From Methanobacteriota archaeon (lineage in GTDB: Archaea > Thermoplasmatota > Thermoplasmata > SG8-5 > JAGLSY01): 64,000 nt of DNA. Numbering within the stretch: position 1 is the first letter of the stretch; each line of letters starts with the position of its first letter. Shown here one piece after another: positions 13,445 to 64,000 of this stretch. The translations under genes and the position numbers were made by a program. The notes under the pieces were generated by a model, which saw only the letters and a program-made list of their open reading frames with translations, did no database searches and was not told the origin of the DNA. Location of the stretch: assembly GCA_020696385.1 (NCBI GenBank), contig JAEHCQ010000001.1, forward strand, positions 320,001-384,000. The letters are read 5' to 3'.

Positions 13445-16123
13445 ATGAAGAAAACACAGCTCAGCATGATAATAGTAGGAATATTGACATTGGCCCTAAT
13501 GATGCCAATCTTTACTAGCTTAGTAGAGAGTAGACCTGCAGAGGAAAGCACACCGGCTTCTGTACCCATGCATCCCGACGATTTCGTTGTGGACTGGTGG
13601 ACCTCCCCAGAATACCCATTGGGAGCAAATTGGACAACAGGGCTCGGTGGGGATATCATAACTGTATATATCCAGTTCAACAGCAGCTATATCGATTATG
13701 CTGAATTGCAAAATGCAAAATGCACCACGATTTGTACTGTGAATCCTACTTGGGAAGTCATGACCTACACGGGCGCGGACAATATCTGGTCCTGCAACCT
13801 CCCCGGCGACTGGGACGTGGGATGGGACGTATACCAATATTCCACAAACTCAGGTGAATACACTGCTTTCCAAATATATGTCGAGAACTCAACATCTTGG
13901 GATTATGGAGTTTACCCTGATGAAGATGGTGATGGCAATTACCAAGCATACGACACGTGGCCACACATATATCCAGCAATCCCACCGACCCAGATCAATG
14001 CCACCACTCAAGTCTCCAAGGCGGTTCTGTACCCTGGAGAGACATTCGATGTTTTTGGAAGCGCGCATTACTGGCCAAGCACTTCATACCCTGGCAATTA
14101 TTCTAGGCTTATTCCTGTTACAGAGACCAATGTGTCTATAACTCTCAATCCGACCTACGATGGAAAGACCGATGCCAATGGTGATTATTCCTTCACTATC
14201 CAGGCCCCTACAACACCAGGATTCTACAATATCAGTACAGACATGACAAATGATACCAAGAACTGGGCTGGCAATGAATCAAGGAATGTGCCATGTGTGT
14301 CTGGTGATGTGATGATCCAGGTTCTGGATATCGATATCGATGTAAATGCAGTTCCCAATGCCACCTACCCGGACAAGAATATTTCTGTCAATGGAGATGC
14401 ATTATGGGAAGATGCCAGCGCAGTGGCGACCTCTCCGGTTAACATCACGATAGTGGAGACTGGCGACTATTGGAATACAAACACAGATGCTGCTGGACTC
14501 TATGATCAGATCATAACTGTTCCAAGCACTCCCAACACTTACACTGTGAATGTGGAAGTCGAGGATGCGGCTACTGGCCATATCAAGACTGGACAGACCA
14601 CGATAGAGGTCCAGACACCGACAATGAACCTGACAGCCGAGTCCAGTGCCAGCACAGCACTCCCGGATCAGACCCTGACCATAACTGGACATGCGGAGTA
14701 TGGGAACGGAGACAATGCGACAAATGCCGAGGTCAATATCACATTGAACGGTGTCGCTGATGTGTACTGGAACAGTACGACAGATGCCAATGGGGATTAT
14801 TCCATTGATATCACCACACCTTTGACCCCGGATACCTACACTATCAATATCACAGCAGAGAGCCCATTGTACACGGGCTTGATGGCCTACAATGAGACCG
14901 ACATTTTGGTAACGGCGGTTCCAGTGCCAGATCTTGTATTGGCAAACACGGACATAATCATAACAGCCGCAGATGGTCTATTCGATGGCGAGGACATTGA
15001 CATAACCGTTAAAATTAAAAACACAGGCATAGCCAATGCGACTGGCGTGTTGGTCACCTTTGATATTAATGACATCGAGATAGATAACAAGACCATTGAC
15101 GTATCACAGGGTGGAAGCACCAATATCACCATCACCTGGGAAGCTGTACAGGGCAATAACACACTCAATATCTCTGTGGATCCTCTGAATGCGATCGAGG
15201 AATCATTCGAGAACAATAACAATGCCTCAAAGATTCTGATCATAGACATCGACACAGATGGGGATGGAATAGGAGATTCATCAGATATCGACATTGATGG
15301 GGATGGATACAACAATACGGATGATGAATTCCCACTGGACGATGATGAATGGCTGGATACGGATGGGGACAGCGAGGGCGACAATGAGGACACCGATGAT
15401 GATAATGACGGTGTGCTGGATGTCGATGACGCATTCCCATTAGATGATACAGAGGACACGGATACCGATGGCGATGGTGTCGGAGATAATGCAGATACCG
15501 ACGATGATGATGACGGTGTGCTGGATGTTAACGACTCATTCCCATTGGACGATACCGAGACAGAGGACTATGATGGTGACGGTATTGGAGACAATGCAGA
15601 CACCGATGATGATGAAGATGGCTATCTGGATGCGACAGAGGATCCCGAACTGCATGACACGGACAATGATGGATTGACCAATGATATCGACAATGACGAT
15701 GATAATGATGGAAAGGTCGATACAGCAGACACCATGCCTTATGACACGGACAATGATGGATTGACCAATGCCGAAGACACCGATGATGATGGTGACGGAG
15801 TATTGGACAAGGACGAGGATCTGAACTGGAACGGAATAGTGGACGATGATGAGACCGACTGGACCAACTCCGACACAGATGGAGATGGGGTGAATGACAA
15901 GGATGACTATGCTCCACTTGATCCAGAGGTCATGTTCAGCACGGATGTTGAGGATGATAGCGGAAGCATAATGCCATTTGCCATTCTTGGAATAGTATTG
16001 ATAGTCGTGGCTGTCGTAGCTATAATGATGATGGGAAAAGGCAAGGGACCGAATAAAACAGGAGAAGAAGCACCTTCAGAGACCGAGCCAGAAGCTCAGA
16101 AAGAGGAAATACCAGAACAGTGA
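13445..16123 (+). CDS. Membrane-anchored surface protein with a CARDB domain and thrombospondin type-3-like Ca-binding repeats
   Basis: Signal peptide; PDLV...VDPLNAIEESFENNN (CARDB); many DTDGDGxGD/DAFPLD repeats; C-terminal TM. Confidence 0.88.
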   Translation: MKKTQLSMIIVGILTLALMMPIFTSLVESRPAEESTPASVPMHPDDFVVDWWTSPEYPLGANWTTGLGGDIITVYIQFNSSYIDYAELQNAKCTTICTVNPTWEVMTYTGADNIWSCNLPGDWDVGWDVYQYSTNSGEYTAFQIYVENSTSWDYGVYPDEDGDGNYQAYDTWPHIYPAIPPTQINATTQVSKAVLYPGETFDVFGSAHYWPSTSYPGNYSRLIPVTETNVSITLNPTYDGKTDANGDYSFTIQAPTTPGFYNISTDMTNDTKNWAGNESRNVPCVSGDVMIQVLDIDIDVNAVPNATYPDKNISVNGDALWEDASAVATSPVNITIVETGDYWNTNTDAAGLYDQIITVPSTPNTYTVNVEVEDAATGHIKTGQTTIEVQTPTMNLTAESSASTALPDQTLTITGHAEYGNGDNATNAEVNITLNGVADVYWNSTTDANGDYSIDITTPLTPDTYTINITAESPLYTGLMAYNETDILVTAVPVPDLVLANTDIIITAADGLFDGEDIDITVKIKNTGIANATGVLVTFDINDIEIDNKTIDVSQGGSTNITITWEAVQGNNTLNISVDPLNAIEESFENNNNASKILIIDIDTDGDGIGDSSDIDIDGDGYNNTDDEFPLDDDEWLDTDGDSEGDNEDTDDDNDGVLDVDDAFPLDDTEDTDTDGDGVGDNADTDDDDDGVLDVNDSFPLDDTETEDYDGDGIGDNADTDDDEDGYLDATEDPELHDTDNDGLTNDIDNDDDNDGKVDTADTMPYDTDNDGLTNAEDTDDDGDGVLDKDEDLNWNGIVDDDETDWTNSDTDGDGVNDKDDYAPLDPEVMFSTDVEDDSGSIMPFAILGIVLIVVAVVAIMMMGKGKGPNKTGEEAPSETEPEAQKEEIPEQ

Positions 16124-24099: not shown

Positions 24100-24462
24100 T
24101 TATACATCATTCATCAATTTCTTCAGCTTCCTGTAGAATTCTTCCTCATCTATTCGGCCTTCTGAATAATATCTGTAAAGTTCCTTTGTGGCCTGCTGTC
24201 TCAGATGGATCGCTCCAACAAAGACCACGATAGCCATTATTCCAAAGGATAATAGGGATATGATCCCCCCTATCCTTCCAGGGGTCAATTCCCATGATGG
24301 CTCACTGGTCTCTTCAATAGGTGTTCTCATAAAAAACCCCTCCTCTTCTACATTCTCCTGCGGCATTGGCATCATCAGATACATGCCAAGCAGGAATATC
24401 ACTGTACATCCGATCGCTGCTAAAGCGAATAGTATAGATCCTTTCTTCATCTCTATCACCAT
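24100..24462 (-). CDS. Small 2-TM membrane protein with a SHOCT-like C-terminus
   Basis: Two TM helices; LYRYYSEGRIDEEEFYRKLKKL. Confidence 0.7.
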   Translation of the reverse strand: MVIEMKKGSILFALAAIGCTVIFLLGMYLMMPMPQENVEEEGFFMRTPIEETSEPSWELTPGRIGGIISLLSFGIMAIVVFVGAIHLRQQATKELYRYYSEGRIDEEEFYRKLKKLMNDV

Positions 24463-24472
24463 AACCTACTAT

Positions 24473-24527
24473 AGTGGTCAAAGTTCATAACCAAAATGAG
24501 GAAAAATGACCACTTACTGGTCACTTT
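24473..24527 (-). promoter_or_regulatory. 55-bp promoter/operator element, copy 1 (contains TGACCA-N5-TGGTCA)
   Basis: Reverse complement matches 30316-30370 at 48/55 positions, ungapped; TTATGAAC begins 28 nt before the ATG at 24462. Confidence 0.75.
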
Positions 24528-24581: not shown

Positions 24582-25805
24582 ATGGTGACATTAGATAAGA
24601 TAGTCCGATTGGCAAATGAAGGCCAATTCGATTCTTCTGGCCCGAAGATCTATGACCTGAACAATATCAATATGCAGAAGGTCAAGACACTGGGTGAGGG
24701 GACGAAACATGATATCTGCGCATCCACAGCATCAAAGCGGCAGGTGGCGGATGTCTCGGGCAGAATAGGAGATGTGGTGAAAGCTGGAGTATGCCATGCT
24801 TTCACTCCTGATGGTCGTTGTGTAGGGATGTTCAAGACCCTTTTCACGAACGCGTGCCAGCATGAATGTAAATATTGTCCAAATGCCACATTGAGCCATC
24901 GCCCGAAGATCCAGAAATACACACCTGAAGAATTGGCCAAGCTCACGCTCATGCTTTATCGCGGCAATTATGTAGAGGGTCTTTTTTTGAGTTCCGGTAT
25001 TGCTGGCAATGAGGATCAGACCATGGAGGATATGATCGAATCCGTTAGACTTCTCAGAGAGAAATATAGTTTCCAGGGTTACATTCATATGAAGATCCTC
25101 CCGGGCGCGTCCTATGAGCATATCAAGCAGGCCAGTGAGCTTGTGGATCGTGTCAGCATAAATATTGAAACACCTTCGAAATCATACATGAGCGAACTCA
25201 GCTCGACCAAGGATTATGACAATGATATTCTTCAGCGTCAGAAGTACATTCGCCATAATATTGGCAAGGGTCGATTTCCCGCTGGCCAGACAACCCAATT
25301 CATCGTAGGAGCGGCACAGGAAACTGACAAAGAGATATTCAAATCCATGCTGAATGAGTATGAGGAGATGGAGGTGAAAAGATCATATTTTTCAGCATTC
25401 AATTCAGTGAAGGGGACGGAGCTGGAGAACACGCCATCACAACCCCAATGGCGTGAGAATAAACTGTATCAAGTGGATTGGCTGCACAGGATATACAAGT
25501 TCCAGAATAAGGAGATAGAGCATGCCTTTGATGAGGATGGATTCCTTTTCAATAAGGATCCGAAACTGTCCATCGCTCTCAATATCATAGACTCAGCCAT
25601 AGATCCGAACGAGGCCACCCAGGAACAGCTTTTGAGAATTCCTGGTATTGGCCCAAAGAGCGCGTATGGCATACTGAAATTACGAAAAAGAGAAAGGATA
25701 TGGAAAAATGAGCAACTGGCTCGAATCGGGGTGGTGACCAAACGAGCCAGGTACTTCTTGAAATTGAACGGGTGGGAATACTCCTCGCTGGAGGATTGGT
25801 CATGA
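24582..25805 (+). CDS. Putative DNA modification/repair radical SAM protein with HhH (TIGR03916-like)
   Basis: CHAFTPDGRC, TNACQHECKYC, YVEGLFLSSG, GYIHMKILPG, AGQTTQFIVG, LYQVDWL, LLRIPGIGPKSA. Confidence 0.92.
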   Translation: MVTLDKIVRLANEGQFDSSGPKIYDLNNINMQKVKTLGEGTKHDICASTASKRQVADVSGRIGDVVKAGVCHAFTPDGRCVGMFKTLFTNACQHECKYCPNATLSHRPKIQKYTPEELAKLTLMLYRGNYVEGLFLSSGIAGNEDQTMEDMIESVRLLREKYSFQGYIHMKILPGASYEHIKQASELVDRVSINIETPSKSYMSELSSTKDYDNDILQRQKYIRHNIGKGRFPAGQTTQFIVGAAQETDKEIFKSMLNEYEEMEVKRSYFSAFNSVKGTELENTPSQPQWRENKLYQVDWLHRIYKFQNKEIEHAFDEDGFLFNKDPKLSIALNIIDSAIDPNEATQEQLLRIPGIGPKSAYGILKLRKRERIWKNEQLARIGVVTKRARYFLKLNGWEYSSLEDWS

Positions 25806-29181: not shown

Positions 29182-30231
29182 ATGGTCCAGGATTTCAAAT
29201 GCCAAAGCTGTGCCGCTCCCCTCAAATTCGATCCCAGTGAGAAAGGATTGAAGTGTGAATATTGTGGGTCCACAGAGGTCATCATGGTTGAGAGAAAGGC
29301 CATTCTGGAACATGACCTTTTTTCTGCCCCAGCCAACATTGGCTGGGGCACGAATACCAAGAGCATCACATGCGAATCCTGCGGAGCGAAGACATCGGCC
29401 GATCTGAAGATATCCGGGAATTGCGCCTTTTGTGGTTCCAATTTTGTCAAGGAATTGGAACCAGATCCAAACCTGATAAGGCCAGAGAGTTTGATACCCT
29501 TTTCAATAGAGAAGGACAATGCACTGTCTCTTTTCAAAAAATGGCTGGGTAAGGGATTTTTCCGTCCATCCAATCTAAAAAAGCTTGGTAGACTGAAGAA
29601 CATACATGGTATCTACATCCCCTTCTGGACATATGATTGTAATGCCCACTCAAATTGGACTGCCATGAGCGGTTATCATTACTACGTCACCGAGACCTAT
29701 AGGACAGATGAAGGAACAAAGACCAGACAGGTTCGAAAGACGAGATGGGTTCCATCGAATGGGAGAAGGCAGGGATTTTACAATGATGTTCTCGTGCCAG
29801 CTTCCAAAGGTCTGGATCATGATCTTGCAAGTAAGATATATCCATTCCATCTCCAACAATTGACACCGTACAAGTCTGAATTCCTCGCAGGCTGGATGGC
29901 CGAGGAATATGCAATATCATTGCCTGAAGGATGGCTGGTCGCACAGAAAAAGGTTCGAAGTTCAGAATACTCCGAATGCTCCAGAGATGTCCCAGGCGAC
30001 ACGCATACAGGGTTAAGCGTACACACGACCCTGACTGATCCAAAATACAAGCATGTTCTACTCCCTGTCTGGGTCGCCTCCTATCATTATAAGAAAAAAC
30101 TTTATCATTTTCTTGTCAATGGACAGACTGGAGAGGTACAGGGCGAGGCTCCGATATCTTGGCTCAAGGTCGCAGCTGTGATCCTTGCTGTAGCGGGTGT
30201 GGTCATGACTATCTGGCTATTATCGAATTGA
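29182..30231 (+). CDS. Zinc-ribbon membrane-anchored protein (TFIIB-type ribbons)
   Basis: CQSC, CEYC, CESC, CAFC; YIPFWTYD, LLPVW, VNGQTGEVQG; C-terminal TM. Confidence 0.85.
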   Translation: MVQDFKCQSCAAPLKFDPSEKGLKCEYCGSTEVIMVERKAILEHDLFSAPANIGWGTNTKSITCESCGAKTSADLKISGNCAFCGSNFVKELEPDPNLIRPESLIPFSIEKDNALSLFKKWLGKGFFRPSNLKKLGRLKNIHGIYIPFWTYDCNAHSNWTAMSGYHYYVTETYRTDEGTKTRQVRKTRWVPSNGRRQGFYNDVLVPASKGLDHDLASKIYPFHLQQLTPYKSEFLAGWMAEEYAISLPEGWLVAQKKVRSSEYSECSRDVPGDTHTGLSVHTTLTDPKYKHVLLPVWVASYHYKKKLYHFLVNGQTGEVQGEAPISWLKVAAVILAVAGVVMTIWLLSN

Positions 30232-30315
30232 TGCTCCTCCTTCTTTATCATATATCATAATATGATCATTGTATTATGATTCAATGATACTACTGGCATA
30301 TATTTTTGATTCTGA

Positions 30316-30370
30316 AAAGTGACCATAAAGTGGGGATTTTTGCTCAATTTAGTTATGAACTTTGACCACT
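30316..30370 (+). promoter_or_regulatory. 55-bp promoter/operator element, copy 2
   Basis: 48/55 identical to the reverse complement of 24473-24527, including the exact 19-mer GTTATGAACTTTGACCACT; lies upstream of four small ORFs. Confidence 0.75.
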
Positions 30371-30417
30371 CTATTTAGTATTAGACTTCGGGAAAAGGGG
30401 TCTAGGATGTGAAAAAA

Positions 30418-30546
30418 ATGAACTACAATAAAAAAGTCGTGCAGGCATTGAGAAAGGTTGGCCGAACGGTCAGATCAGAGCTAACAGCAGCAGAAAGAGC
30501 GAGCCCAGCTGTATTGAGACATGTGGCAGCCCACTGGGGCGGTTGA
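30418..30546 (+). CDS. Microprotein A (42 aa, basic)
   Basis: MNYNKKVVQALRKVGRTVRSELTAAERASPAVLRHVAAHWGG; GGATGTGA upstream; first of four tandem ORFs. Confidence 0.55.
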   Translation: MNYNKKVVQALRKVGRTVRSELTAAERASPAVLRHVAAHWGG

Positions 30547-30571
30547 TCAGGAAGATGATGGAGGTAAGAAC

Positions 30572-30691
30572 ATGATAAAAATATTGATAGATGCGATACA
30601 CAAATCTGTTAAGGACGATGATACAGTTGGAAAAGACAAGAAAATAAGCCCTTCGCTCAATTGCATCCCTCTTTACGATAGAGCAGTATAA
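30572..30691 (+). CDS. Microprotein B (39 aa)
   Basis: MIKILIDAIHKSVKDDDTVGKDKKISPSLNCIPLYDRAV; GGAGGT SD 6 nt before ATG. Confidence 0.65.
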   Translation: MIKILIDAIHKSVKDDDTVGKDKKISPSLNCIPLYDRAV

Positions 30692-30708
30692 AGTGGGAGA
30701 GTGCCAAG

Positions 30709-30840
30709 ATGATCGTAACAGTAAAACATGACCTTTATGCTGATCTTCAGAGGATCGAGAATAGGGGGAAAAAGAATGCAAAGAAATTTTCTATCCTCAA
30801 TATCCTGAGCAGATCTAAAAGAAGAACTGGAGGGAGATAG
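30709..30840 (+). CDS. Microprotein C (43 aa), paralogous to the N-terminus of 31759..32148
   Basis: MIVTVKHDLYADLQRIENRGKKNAKKFSILNILSRSKRRTGGR; DLYADLQRIENRGK matches DIYADLEKIEERGK; GGGAG SD. Confidence 0.75.
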   Translation: MIVTVKHDLYADLQRIENRGKKNAKKFSILNILSRSKRRTGGR

Positions 30841-30948
30841 ATGAGTGATCAGGATGAATTTACAAACACCATTAGACTCCTTCTCTTTGGAGAGGATGAT
30901 GAAGATAAAATAGCAGATATTGAGATAGCAGACCATTCGCCAATATGA
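30841..30948 (+). CDS. Microprotein D (35 aa, acidic)
   Basis: MSDQDEFTNTIRLLLFGEDDEDKIADIEIADHSPI; ATG directly after the ORF C stop; GGAGGG SD. Confidence 0.65.
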   Translation: MSDQDEFTNTIRLLLFGEDDEDKIADIEIADHSPI

Positions 30949-30975
30949 ATGGTCGACTATCTCCCCTCATTTTGA
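30922..30975 (+). terminator. Stem-loop closing the microprotein operon
   Basis: GAGATAG-CA-GACCATTC / GAATGGTC-GA-CTATCTC (7+8 bp) overlapping the ORF D stop, then a pyrimidine-rich run. Confidence 0.55.
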
Positions 30976-31032
30976 TCATTATTACATTTTATACACCATG
31001 TTTAAAATATTTTCATCCACATATCCCGGCTC

Positions 31033-31575
31033 ATGCAGGGTTTGGAGATAAAAAGAATTCCCAGAGAAGAGCTGATTGACAGGGTTACGATATTTTCCTA
31101 CGAATCAGACAGCTATTATCGTGTGACCATCAATGAAAAGAATGATGGGTGGTCGATAGATCTTAAGCGTAAGGAGTTCCCCCAGACCTTTATAAAAAAT
31201 GATTCCACAGATAAGCTAGTACATGATTTCAAGGGAGATTCAGAGATATATCTGGCATACCTTGATGGAAAGGAAGCTGGTCAGTTGCAGATCGAGTTCC
31301 AAGAATACAATAAAAGCATAAGAGTTTGGGATATAGATATCTGGCCAGGATACCGTAGAAAGGGTATCGGAAAGGCTCTTATGGACCTGTGTAAGAAGAG
31401 AGCGGTGGATATCAATGCCAGACGTATAGTTCTGGAAGTGCAATCATCGAACTCAAAGGCAATTGAATTCTACCTGGCCATGGGCTTCAAGCTCATTGGA
31501 TTGGATGGAAGCCATTATTGTAATGATGATATGGATAGAGGAGAGGTCAGATTGGAGATGGCCATACACCTTTGA
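31033..31575 (+). CDS. GNAT acetyltransferase (streptothricin acetyltransferase-like)
   Basis: YRRKGIGKALM, LEVQSSNSKAIEFY..MGFKLIGLD. Confidence 0.85.
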   Translation: MQGLEIKRIPREELIDRVTIFSYESDSYYRVTINEKNDGWSIDLKRKEFPQTFIKNDSTDKLVHDFKGDSEIYLAYLDGKEAGQLQIEFQEYNKSIRVWDIDIWPGYRRKGIGKALMDLCKKRAVDINARRIVLEVQSSNSKAIEFYLAMGFKLIGLDGSHYCNDDMDRGEVRLEMAIHL

Positions 31576-31758: not shown

Positions 31759-32148
31759 ATGGGTCGCGACATATACGCAGATTTGGAAAAGATAGAGGAA
31801 CGCGGAAAGCGTAAGAAAAAGGGATTCCTTTCTTTCATGGGCGGAAAGGAGCCAGGGGAAGAATCGCCCCCAGTTCACACAGTTTCTGCCTTCAGTGGTA
31901 ACCCGGACCCACCGACAGCTCCAACTCCCAAGCCAAAGCCTGTGGAGCAGGAGATCATTGAGACCGAGGAATGGATACCACTCAAGGGTCGAAAATTAAA
32001 GCAAGCACAAGATCACTTACATGATTACAAAAAGGTCCTGGAAAAGAGTTATAAATCAGGCCATTACAGCAAATCCAAATGTAGAGAAAAAGTGAAGGAA
32101 AAGGAGATCGAACTCGGACTATGCTCTCCAGATGCCTATGACAATTGA
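31759..32148 (+). CDS. Hypothetical protein (DxYADL motif, amphipathic KKGFLSFM segment, Pro-rich linker, SHOCT-like C-terminus)
   Basis: ATG 31759 after GGTGA; N-terminus shared with microprotein C. Confidence 0.75.
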   Translation: MGRDIYADLEKIEERGKRKKKGFLSFMGGKEPGEESPPVHTVSAFSGNPDPPTAPTPKPKPVEQEIIETEEWIPLKGRKLKQAQDHLHDYKKVLEKSYKSGHYSKSKCREKVKEKEIELGLCSPDAYDN

Positions 32149-53960: not shown

Positions 53961-54052
53961 TCTAAGCACCTCTGATTATACAGGCTGATACAGATATAGG
54001 ATTTATAATTTTATGAGTATAGAAAGTCTTTGATTTGAATAAAATAGTATGA

Positions 54053-54112
54053 GGGCCGGGATGGGAAAAATGAGGTCTATTCGACGTATATTCTCATTTT
54101 TCACGCCAGCCC
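54053..54112 (-). ncRNA. Candidate hairpin RNA ending in a copy of the tRNA-His 3' end and trailer
   Basis: GGGCUGG/CCGGCCC outer stem, 10-bp inner stem GAAAAAUGAG/CUCAUUUUUC; 3' end UCCCGGCCCUCAUAC identical to tRNA-His. Confidence 0.4.
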
Positions 54113-54219
54113 AATTCTGAATTAATTAAAGTACTGGCTAAGAATTGGGCGTATATATTCGATGTCTCATATTGTTTTATGAGTATGATAACTAATTGAC
54201 GAAAATAAAATGGTATGAG

Positions 54220-54292
54220 GGCCGGGACCGAGAATTGAACCCGGGACGGGGGCTCCACAGGCCCCTAGGATAACCACTACCCCACCCCGGCC
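54220..54292 (-). tRNA. tRNA-His (GUG), encoded G-1, no CCA
   Basis: Acceptor GCCGGGG/UCCCGGC, D-arm, anticodon arm GGGGC-CUGUGGA-GCCCC, T-loop GGUUCAAUUC. Confidence 0.95.
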
Positions 54293-62055: not shown

Positions 62056-64000
62056 CTTCCCCCCTGCATTCTTTTTGTGCTCCTGCTCTTCCAGGAACGT
62101 GCCTCTTCGAAATCAGGATCCAATTCCAGAACCTTATCAAAGCTCTTGATGGCCTCTTTATATTTCTCGGCCTCATGCTGAGTTATTCCCCGGGCCAGCC
62201 AATTTTTAGGATTCTCAGCGCCCATCTTAACAGAATAATCCATGGACCTCATGGCATCGTCATATTTTCCGATGTCCTTCTGGGCAACACCCAACAATCT
62301 CCATACATAATCATTTTCGGGGTCCAGCTTCAAAGCTTCCCTGTAAAGTTTAATGGCCTCATTGTACCCGCCATTCTTGTACATCAAACGTCCTTTTCCT
62401 ATCAAGGCATCGACATTCTCCTCATCCAGCTCCAGTGCGTGGTCATACGCTTCCCTGGATTCCTCTATCTTCCCCTGGCTTCGATGAACATCTCCCTTCA
62501 AAGTGAGAGCCCGGACATCATCTGGATATATCCGCAATGCGCTTTCCAGTGCCTGGATCGCGCCACCCCACTTCCCTTTCTTGAGCATGATATCCGCCTT
62601 GCCGATCAATGCATCCGCATTTGTTGGGGCGAATTCAAGCAATCCTCTGTATATCTTTTCAGCGTCATCATCCTTGCCCTTCTCCATCAACATGTCCGCC
62701 TTCTTTATCCAGGCATATTCATATTCATCATCCAGGCTTATTGCTCGATCATAGAATTGTAAGGCCCCACCCCATCTTCCTTTCTGATGGAGTACATCTG
62801 CCTTTTTGGCCCAAGCTTCTGGCTCATCTGGGTCGATATCAGATGCTTTCTCATAGCATTTGTAGGCCTCGTCATATCTCTCAAGTCCTGCAAAGCCATC
62901 CCCGATACCCAGCCATGCATCTTTATTGTCCACATCTGCCTCGATAACACCATTGAAGCACACGATGGCATCCTCATACAATTCGGCCTCGAGATCCATG
63001 GATCCAAGTAAAAGCCGGGCTTCGACGTGTTCCTTGTCCAGCTCCGTGGCCATCTTCAATGCGATAGAAGCATCATCATATTCTTCAATATCATAATGCC
63101 CTCTTCCTTTCATATAATAGGCCTCGGCATTGTTCTCATCAGATTCAAGGACCCTGTTCAGCATCTTGATCCCTTGTTTCTCCCGGCCCATCTCGATCAA
63201 TAATCCAGCCTTGTTTACCTGGAATTGATAATTATCCGGGTTCATATTGATGCCTGTGTCATAGCATAACAAGGCTCCCTCTTCATCGCCTTCTTCTACG
63301 AGCTCCTCCGCCCTTTCAAGAAGTGCGATCTCGTCATTGGACATCTCTGTATCATCGGAGATGTCTTCATCTTCTTCATCATCTTCATCTTCGATCTCAG
63401 CATCTGCTGGCTCGATTATTTCTGGCTCATCAAGTACGAGCATTTCGTCGATATCGGCCTCTGCCTGCAATTCATCGACATCTATCCCCTCTTCGATGTC
63501 GAGGTTATCCTCGATATCCATTTCTTCTTCAATATCGGGAATATCGGCTATTTCCTTGCTCGGAGCCTCGGCATCGGGCTTCCCACTGCCCATTTTGCCG
63601 AAGATATCATCCACATCCTGGAACTCAGCTTCGACATCGATGGTTCCTAACTCAGCCTCGACATCGTCTTCATCTTCTGTATCAAATGCATCTGTGAGAT
63701 CGGCGATATCTGGCTTTTCTATCTCATCCACGGTATCTTCAATTTCATCTTCCTCATCATCTTCCTCATCATCTTCCTCATCATCTTCCTCATCATCTTC
63801 AACATCATCTTCAACAGTGTCTTCCTCAAAGGCCTCTTCGATATCGGAGAGTATATCTTCTTCAGGTGAAGTATCAACTGGCTCATCAATATCTGCAATA
63901 TCTGCCAGTTCATCCACTTCTTCCTCAATAGTGGATGTTGGCTCGATGGCTTCATCAATACCCGCCATTAGCTCGTCCTCCAGAGAAAGTGGCGCATCAT
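62052..64000 (-). CDS. Highly acidic TPR protein, 5'-truncated by the window edge
   Basis: Frame stays open to base 64000 (DAPLSLEDEL before the Met at 63968); about 12 TPRs; ATGA overlap with the next gene. Confidence 0.85.
   Translation of the reverse strand, partial: DAPLSLEDELMAGIDEAIEPTSTIEEEVDELADIADIDEPVDTSPEEDILSDIEEAFEEDTVEDDVEDDEEDDEEDDEEDDEEDEIEDTVDEIEKPDIADLTDAFDTEDEDDVEAELGTIDVEAEFQDVDDIFGKMGSGKPDAEAPSKEIADIPDIEEEMDIEDNLDIEEGIDVDELQAEADIDEMLVLDEPEIIEPADAEIEDEDDEEDEDISDDTEMSNDEIALLERAEELVEEGDEEGALLCYDTGINMNPDNYQFQVNKAGLLIEMGREKQGIKMLNRVLESDENNAEAYYMKGRGHYDIEEYDDASIALKMATELDKEHVEARLLLGSMDLEAELYEDAIVCFNGVIEADVDNKDAWLGIGDGFAGLERYDEAYKCYEKASDIDPDEPEAWAKKADVLHQKGRWGGALQFYDRAISLDDEYEYAWIKKADMLMEKGKDDDAEKIYRGLLEFAPTNADALIGKADIMLKKGKWGGAIQALESALRIYPDDVRALTLKGDVHRSQGKIEESREAYDHALELDEENVDALIGKGRLMYKNGGYNEAIKLYREALKLDPENDYVWRLLGVAQKDIGKYDDAMRSMDYSVKMGAENPKNWLARGITQHEAEKYKEAIKSFDKVLELDPDFEEARSWKSRSTKRMQGGR
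63745..63816. repeat. 12-bp coding minisatellite (4x TCATCTTCCTCA + 2x TCATCTTCAACA) encoding EDDE/EDDV repeats
   Basis: Read directly; in frame within the acidic TPR gene. Confidence 0.85.

Follow-up and report, generated by a model that had tools for sequence, protein, structure and literature searches.

A probable operator-controlled cassette of small-protein genes ahead of a GNAT gene in an archaeon of the Thermoplasmatota

What is encoded in a seemingly empty stretch of archaeal DNA that is tiled with small open reading frames (ORFs), and is it still in use? This question is raised by the locus at 30232-30994 of the window analysed here, a stretch of 64,000 nucleotides from a Thermoplasmatota archaeon (contig C11, positions 320001-384000, of the source genome G000, an assembly of 2.28 Mb in 50 contigs with 45% G+C and 94% completeness). 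Between the gene of a 349-amino-acid zinc-ribbon/transmembrane protein (29182-30231) and a gene for a GNAT acetyltransferase, an operator-like element is followed by four small ORFs, A to D, and a hairpin. With some reservation, we favour the reading of this locus as a regulated small-protein unit, whereby, judged by sequence comparison, ORF C is well supported, ORFs B and D are moderately supported and ORF A is probably dead. A regulated polycistronic micropeptide unit had already been proposed in the preliminary description of this DNA; the proposal is partly upheld by the operator, the ribosome-binding motifs, the hairpin and the recurrence of the layout in six further genomes, with the exception of ORF A, which finds no support as a conserved gene. 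In the following, the operator together with the small ORFs at 30232-30994 is called the cassette, G001, G002 and G003 are congeners of the source genome, and g5 is a genus of a sister family in the same order. The features concerned are, in window coordinates:

30319-30369, plus strand: putative promoter/operator element with a degenerate arm (30319-30325), a weakened TGGTCA-type half-site (30331-30337), the conserved TTTTGCTCA (30338-30346), a TATA-like box (about 30347-30357) and a TGACCAC half-site (30363-30369)
30405-30412, plus strand: Shine-Dalgarno (SD)-like GGATGTGA, followed by an A-rich spacer, ahead of ORF A
30418-30546, plus strand: ORF A, 42 amino acids, with an alternative GTG start at 30409
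30572-30691, plus strand: ORF B, 39 amino acids, with SD-like GGAGGT at 30560-30565
30709-30840, plus strand: ORF C, 43 amino acids, stop codon TAG, with SD-like GGGAG at 30695-30699
30841-30948, plus strand: ORF D, 35 amino acids, with SD-like GGAGG at 30829-30833
30922-30963, plus strand: hairpin, probable transcript end, with a U4 run downstream at 30970-30973
31001-31009, plus strand: TATA-like box TTTAAAATA, 24 nt upstream of the GNAT start
31033-31575, plus strand: GNAT acetyltransferase (Pfam Acetyltransf_1, 8.8e-16), the conserved neighbour 3' of the cassette
31759-32148, plus strand: 129-amino-acid protein with the motif of ORF C at its start and a conserved C-terminal module
24470-24527, minus strand: the operator's other copy within the window, which would drive the gene of a 120-amino-acid membrane protein (24462-24100, minus strand)

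The ORF array, its operator and the order-wide layout

The array itself agrees with its preliminary description, as four ORFs starting with ATG follow each other on the plus strand with gaps of 25 nt (A-B), 17 nt (B-C) and 0 nt (C-D), ORFs C and D lying in one frame and being separated by a single TAG. Each ATG is preceded, as had been observed, by an SD-like motif at a distance of 5-9 nt. The 3' end of the 16S rRNA of this genome is GGATCACCTCCT, and since a 4-mer SD core is found ahead of 42% of 1253 long ORFs compared with 15.5% of 5000 random positions, this organism does make use of SD sites. The noted basic character of ORF C and acidic character of ORF D are reflected in net charges of +9 and -9; the preliminary description had put the two forward as a possible cognate pair. 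Equally real is the terminal hairpin, with 16 base pairs, a 2x2 internal loop, -23.1 kcal/mol and a z score of -5.5, which is equalled by none of 200 shuffles and overlaps the final codons of ORF D. The plus strand is purine-rich at 30400-30800, like nearby plus-strand genes. The observed same-strand ORF coverage is matched by 1.1% of 1000 mononucleotide shuffles and by 7.2% of weaker shuffles with swaps limited to bases with identical neighbours; the tiling alone is only mildly unusual, and the case rests on conservation and not on the ORFs themselves. In Pfam, NCBIfam and PHROGs searched at E <= 0.1, none of the ORFs A-D reaches a family cut-off, the sole match being Mor for ORF A with an E value of 0.056, below the cut-off. 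That C-TAG-D constitutes one gene with a read-through stop codon was considered and rejected: the genome shows no pyrrolysine (Pyl) machinery, with a best PylS_Cterm score of 38.6 bits against a cut-off of 178 and no CUA tRNA found by an ARAGORN scan of the 94%-complete assembly, ORF D possesses its own SD motif and ATG, and homologues of ORF C with 43-48 amino acids stop where ORF C stops.

The conserved element of 55 bp that had been recognised ahead of the array stands up to comparison. The stretch 30316-30373 is an inverted copy of 24470-24527, a 58-nt repeat with 86% identity, and a fixed geometry is shared by 15 copies in 11 genomes of two families of the order: a variable arm, N5, TGGTCA, 25 nt containing TTTTGCTCA and the TATA-like box, and TGACC. 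Every copy examined precedes, in the same orientation, a gene start carrying an SD motif of the GGTGAT or GGATGTGA type followed by an A-rich spacer, whereby GGATGTGA and the spacer at ORF A are the positional counterpart of GGTGAT, A-run and ATG in the sister-family cassettes and in a gene termed S. Where the first arm has changed, the second shows no matching compensation, and the repeat is direct instead of inverted in two copies; protein-binding half-sites fit this pattern and an RNA hairpin does not. We take the element to be a promoter/operator common to the whole order. A profile of the 15 copies yields four nhmmer matches at E <= 5.6e-6 in this genome, that of the cassette (C11:350319-350369) with an E value of 5.1e-13. 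Behind these four copies are found the cassette, gene S encoding a signal-anchor protein of about 105 amino acids (C33), the 120-amino-acid membrane protein, which has a weak SHOCT-like DUF1707 match (E 4.8e-4, 20.5 bits with a Pfam cut-off of 27.6), and a 478-amino-acid MFS transporter (MFS_1, 2.9e-35).

The genes behind the operator copies display additional particularities. The copy of the MFS transporter (C11:2876-2924, L079) is located in a divergent intergenic region, as is the copy at 24470-24527; opposite to the latter lies a radical-SAM gene (window 24582-25805, Pfam), opposite to the former a gene at C11:1796-2881 (minus strand) with a CxxxCxxC motif spotted by eye. The 120-amino-acid membrane protein (24100-24462, minus strand) probably starts at an internal ATG, the fifth codon, with GGTGAT 4 nt upstream and the TGACC site of the operator ending about 22 nt upstream. 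The 5' leader of gene S contains in two of the four congeners (L004:1545-1675 in G002; G000:C33:44440-44555) an insert of about 110 nt between the shared promoter and the SD motif, which folds into two hairpins within a closing stem (-47.9 kcal/mol, z score -5.3), has no Rfam match, and is missing from gene S of G003 and from the loci that encode relatives of ORF B.

The layout of the locus recurs outside the genus. Orthologues of the GNAT gene are present in 13 of the 22 genomes of the order. In genus g5, where GNAT was found in six of eight genomes searched, all six carry within about 550 nt upstream the operator and three small ORFs: ORF1 with 42-46 amino acids, ORF2 with 56-65 amino acids and a DLYxEL motif, and ORF3 with 49-50 amino acids, separated by -13 to 34 nt and followed about 45 nt on by GNAT. 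For ORF1, the ratio of nonsynonymous to synonymous differences (pN/pS) is lowest in frame 0 in all five pairs compared; none of the sister-family ORFs has a Pfam match. No such trio was found upstream of the GNAT genes of G004, G005, G006, G008 and G002. The six sister-family loci (L070-L074, L078) share with the window the operator geometry, the SD and start context, the gene order, the same GNAT and a middle gene homologous to ORF C; they differ in that ORF1 and ORF3 show no detectable similarity to ORF B and its relatives (the X family) or to ORF D, and in that the first ORF is not duplicated. The two cassettes are linked by position, operator, start context and the middle gene alone, among the ORFs themselves only by the middle gene, for which hhalign of an alignment around ORF C (A9) with one around sister-family ORF2 (A12), without shared sequences, gives 96.1% and an E value of 3.3e-9 over 21 columns. 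Homology of the X family to ORF1 and of ORF D to ORF3 had been suggested by position and a shared L[YF]xxA[IL] stretch and was set aside, being undetectable by sequence. As the same operator-driven arrangement is found in six sister-family genomes, the order operator, small ORF, DLYx(D/E)L ORF, small ORF, GNAT is considered ancestral to the order. The GNAT gene probably possesses its own promoter around the box at 31001-31009, as this TATA-like box is kept in G002, which lacks the cassette.

The protein families of the cassette

The initial impression that the ORFs match no family does not hold for ORF C, a member of a DLYxDL-motif family and paralogue of the N-terminus of the protein at 31759-32148. 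Residues 8-27 match the start of this 129-amino-acid protein (tblastn E 8.5e-4) and a 57-amino-acid ORF on contig C48 of the same genome, and residues 8-21 keep all 11 invariant residues of the family motif [RK]D[IL]Yx[DE]LxxIExRGK, which is followed by a basic run (alignment A9). An exhaustive hidden Markov model (HMM) search of 1.84 billion representative proteins retrieved 62 representatives at E <= 1e-3, among them 39 of at most 90, 26 of at most 60 and 9 of at least 300 amino acids; the long relatives (300-413 amino acids) contain the motif two or three times, with long acidic or proline-rich linkers and a conserved terminal module. Among 121 genomes of the class, a profile search located the motif in 14, which are distributed over all four families of the order (2/2, 7/7, 2/2 and 1/2 genomes) and include 1/9 genomes of one other family. 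Over the first 40 residues of P0053, the identity with ORF C amounts to 60%; four other proteins, of 43-48 amino acids, reach 45-55%. Among them P0063, with 43 amino acids, is 48% identical and ends at the same position of the alignment. In the comparison with its paralogue on C48, pN/pS is 0.52 in frame 0 (p 0.0012) versus 1.25 and 1.14 in the other frames. The length match to the homologues, the profile match and the frame-specific signal therefore identify ORF C as a complete member of a real small-protein family without a name and not as a piece of its neighbour; relative to the N-terminus of the 129-amino-acid protein, it is an old paralogue (nucleotide identity 54%) and not a recent fragment.

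The context of such a gene as second small ORF behind the operator and ahead of GNAT is encountered in the window and in the six sister-family genomes. It is not universal, as the C48 copy is without operator and GNAT and the copies in families f2 and f3 precede a zinc-ribbon protein. In the congeners G001-G003 no C-type gene was found apart from the orthologue of the 129-amino-acid protein. Searches of the ESM Atlas with ORF C and the 129-amino-acid protein returned no usable match, the family profile reached a best E value of 0.41 against PDB sequences and retrieved no relatives from JGI metagenomes and viral contigs, and a word-based protein search with ORF C alone gave no candidate. The C-terminal module of the 129-amino-acid protein looks SHOCT-like to the eye; Pfam detects no such domain there, and no SHOCT or DUF1707 match above cut-off was obtained for ORFs A-D, for 31759-32148 or for 13 longer family members.

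Another trio of such genes, without operator and with a 132-amino-acid ORF in place of GNAT, is present at G000:C48:109255-109793 (L056:1267-1805). Its first ORF (54 amino acids) contains an internal tandem repeat of 12 amino acids, the second is the 57-amino-acid ORF with a DIYAEL motif, and the third (57 amino acids) is homologous to sister-family ORF3. This trio, which is closer to the sister-family proteins than the cassette is, was not found in the three congeners, and its ORFs have no Pfam match. In L045, L046 and L053 (families f2 and f3), a small DLYGDL-motif ORF has an acidic tail and is followed not by an ORF of about 50 amino acids and GNAT but by an ORF of 135-157 amino acids opening with a zinc-ribbon-like CxxC...CxxC motif.

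Relatives of ORF B with 44-47 amino acids stand immediately after the operator in G001 and G003; together with P0004 they form the X family, of which ORF B is the probable member in this genome. The family comprises four clusters in a collection of 5.8 billion proteins, including one further relative of 44 amino acids, is confined among the 22 genomes of the order to three of the four species of this genus, and has no relatives in JGI metagenome collections as searched with its profile. Conservation among its members concerns the N-terminal helix and, at the C-terminal end, the stretch IS-S-R..LALYD..IKS.IR; in the AlphaFold2 (AF2) model, a helix (2-16), a basic linker and a second helix (30-43) are predicted. 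ORF B is 41% identical to the G003 protein in pairwise comparison and matches the X profile, which included ORF B itself, with an E value of 1.3e-22. Between G001 and G003, a frame-agnostic DNA alignment gives for X a pN/pS of 0.38 in the annotated frame (p 4e-6); for ORF B compared with G003, the values are 0.57 in frame 0 (p 0.037) and 0.87 and 1.05 in the others. Over both comparisons, the other frames span 0.87-1.5. ORF A shares residues 1-21 with the X protein of G001 (43% identity); past residue 21 no significant similarity to X was detected in any frame. It is probably a degenerate tandem copy of ORF B. Reading it as a frameshifted X gene was rejected, the traces in other frames being faint and not significant.

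The sole relative of ORF D is a 41-amino-acid ORF in G001 (L002:1753-1878), 10 nt after X. Between the two genomes pN/pS is 0.52 in frame 0 (p 0.009), 0.95 and 2.16 in the other frames, and the DNA alignment is ambiguous as to whether the G001 gene arose by a deletion fusing the start of C to D. Two weak D-like matches in G001 turned out to be a repeated hairpin and not genes. Conservation of the reading frames in close relatives, on which the preliminary description had made its proposal depend, is thus seen for ORFs B and D and not for ORF A; ORF C has no orthologue in the congeners and has its homologues elsewhere.

Decay, partner genes or a small RNA

The cassette is accessory and in flux within the genus. 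G001 displays the order element, X, D, flavodoxin gene on the minus strand, GNAT gene and gene of the 129-amino-acid protein, G003 the order element, X, flavodoxin gene and gene of the 129-amino-acid protein; GNAT was not found in G003, an assembly of 74% completeness. In G002, the closest relative with 89% identity of the flanking protein, the missing segment ends at 30994, just downstream of the hairpin, and the stretch from 30995 is retained. The four congeners thereby represent four states of the locus, as one has a duplication with one copy degenerate, two are reduced and one has lost everything by deletion, which shows how such genes evolve. The flavodoxin-family gene (Flavodoxin_5, 2.6e-12), which follows the small ORFs immediately and is encoded on the other strand (L002:1904-2368, minus strand, in G001 and the matching stretch of L008 in G003), is missing at the corresponding site of the source genome.

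Several results weigh against a regulated unit that is still functional. ORF A is without coding signal (pN/pS 0.86, 0.77 and 0.86 across the three frames), ORF B stops 5 codons before the usual end of its family with several conserved C-terminal positions changed relative to the four other members, and the AF2 model of the X family is of low confidence, with a predicted local distance difference test score (pLDDT) of 65 and a predicted template modelling score (pTM) of 0.24. The comparisons of X with sister-family ORF1 and of D with ORF3 reach 1.4% and 0.1% in hhalign, and decoy-calibrated HMM scores give empirical p values of 0.11-1.0. The pN/pS tests concern 30-45 codons with saturated synonymous sites and nominal p values, and as they integrate both lineages they cannot show that the copy of this genome is still functional. 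The syntenic site of G002 measures 41 nt compared with 763 nt (30232-30994) here, and genes of the X, D and C type were not found elsewhere in this genome (93% complete); G003 keeps X only, and G001 keeps X and D without C. A unit missing from the closest relative and partial in two others is therefore dispensable and may be decaying. These points feed the main rival explanation, which we regard as unlikely, if the most serious one: that the cassette was functional in an ancestor and now consists of pseudogene remnants heading for the deletion seen in G002, with ORFs that are open because they are short. Besides the degenerate ORF A, such a relic would account for ORF B being truncated and the most diverged of five family members (41% identity to the reference, with 73% for another member), for the absence of C from G001-G003 and of D from G002 and G003, and for a tiling that 1-7% of shuffles reproduce. 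Against decay stand an ORF C of full length compared with its homologues of 43-48 amino acids and with every invariant motif residue in place, an ORF D that keeps its conserved core with mostly synonymous differences, and the intactness of the four SD motifs, the operator and the terminator hairpin.

The proximity of GNAT invites the explanation that the small ORFs are antitoxin-like or regulatory subunits of the downstream acetyltransferase. Type II toxin-antitoxin systems do include pairs of a small ribbon-helix-helix (RHH)/DUF1778 antitoxin with a GNAT toxin, and, as in these systems, small genes lie in the window immediately ahead of a GNAT of about 180 amino acids, an arrangement that is repeated in G001 and in the six sister-family genomes. 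The defining features of such pairs, an RHH or DUF1778 domain, co-transcription and co-inheritance, are not those of the window: neither ORFs A-D (Pfam, NCBIfam, PHROGs) nor the sister-family ORFs (Pfam) match RHH or DUF1778, the strong hairpin and a separate TATA-like box intervene between ORF D and GNAT, G002 has GNAT without the cassette, G003 has X in an incomplete assembly in which GNAT was not found, and the C48 trio has no GNAT downstream. A partnership with GNAT is accordingly very improbable. At least as improbable is a conserved promoter that drives a leader or small RNA with incidental ORFs. For it speak the DNA-level conservation among congeners, which is confined to the element and the first ~55 nt of ORF A, and the very fast evolution of the flanking ORFs of the family; opposed to it are the frame-specific synonymous excess for X, D and C, the presence of an SD motif ahead of each of the four ORFs, the annotation of the X and D relatives as proteins by the gene callers of other assemblies, and an Rfam covariance search of the locus without a match at E <= 0.1 (best E values 0.2 and 0.49, far under the gathering scores).

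Apart from these loci, the window contains other repeats. At 15244-15889, coding-type repeats consist of a 105-nt unit occurring three times and of 25-nt units rich in GAT/GAC/GGN codons, and long repeats of the GAA/GAT-complement (acidic) type are found at 63363-63835, near 63.4-63.8 kb. In A+T-rich surroundings, a 58-nt direct repeat with 78% identity (54004-54061 and 54170-54227, 166 nt apart) closes in both copies with the same G+C-rich 9-mer.

Possible role and relation to known systems

If the locus is a regulated small-protein unit as we favour, 30232-30994 would be one transcription unit, in which the operator/promoter at 30319-30369 drives a short polycistronic mRNA ending at the hairpin 30922-30963. 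The products would be small, charged, non-membrane proteins with ORF C as conserved core and ORFs B and D as fast-evolving small proteins confined to the genus, and the cassette would represent the local form of the arrangement proposed as ancestral for the order. A putative transcription factor would bind the half-sites TGGTCA and TGACC that flank the TATA-like box and would bring under joint control the cassette, the MFS transporter and two small proteins that are membrane-bound or secreted; if co-regulated, these proteins and the exporter hint at a membrane-related response. The motif of ORF C may form a short amphipathic helix with hydrophobic residues at i, i+4 and i+7, after which come a glycine, a run of basic residues and a small patch of hydrophobic ones, and its repetition in disordered proteins resembles a short linear interaction motif. 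As ORF C carries the motif alone, competition with the larger proteins is the simplest model: a single-motif mimic would compete with multi-motif proteins for the same partner or surface, and a role as motif-mimic modulator is our best guess for ORF C. In the available text of PMC11237479, SHOCT-like modules are predicted to anchor proteins at the inner face of the membrane. Combined into one picture, these elements would describe an order-wide microprotein cassette, in which a protein of 43-65 amino acids, built from a single DLYxDL helix and a basic patch, mimics large disordered scaffolds with several motifs in a dominant-negative manner and is induced jointly with an MFS exporter and with small proteins that are membrane-bound or secreted, in a membrane or stress regulon, the flanking microproteins changing so rapidly that between families they are replaced or unrecognisable; as a whole, this picture is improbable.

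In archaeal genomes, nothing is annotated as poorly as the small proteins, and almost nothing is known of them beyond two model species. The shared operator, the gene order conserved in two families and the one motif-copying member make the present cluster accessible to tests. Were the mimic idea true, it would provide an example from the archaea in which a paralogue reduced to the motif acts as regulator; were the locus only a decaying relic, it would caution that short ORFs in a tiled array, even with good SD motifs, can persist after their function has been lost. General literature searches retrieved no paper on such a cassette, searches too unspecific to show that none exists.

In plants and animals, microProteins are small paralogues with a single motif, which titrate partners away from larger proteins. 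Like these, ORF C contains only the interaction-type motif of a larger protein, here encoded about 900 nt downstream; we know of no archaeal example of a microProtein. With the 129-amino-acid protein and the relatives of 300-413 amino acids, ORF C shares the DIYADLxKIEERGKR motif, the basic run and the short hydrophobic patch, which align with its residues 8-27; the long linker and the conserved C-terminal module of these proteins are absent from it. The small proteomes of Haloferax volcanii (PMC10117724) and Methanosarcina mazei (PMC11456600) have been charted by ribosome profiling (Ribo-seq) and peptidomics. As presented in the available text of these studies, they consist, like this locus, of unannotated ORFs of at most 70 amino acids, many of which are lineage-specific; unlike them, and without sequence relation to what is given there, several genes are joined here in one operator-controlled cassette that has been kept across two families. 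Compared with these systems, the cluster is a new, unnamed form of small-protein gene cluster that is conserved, operator-controlled and testable.

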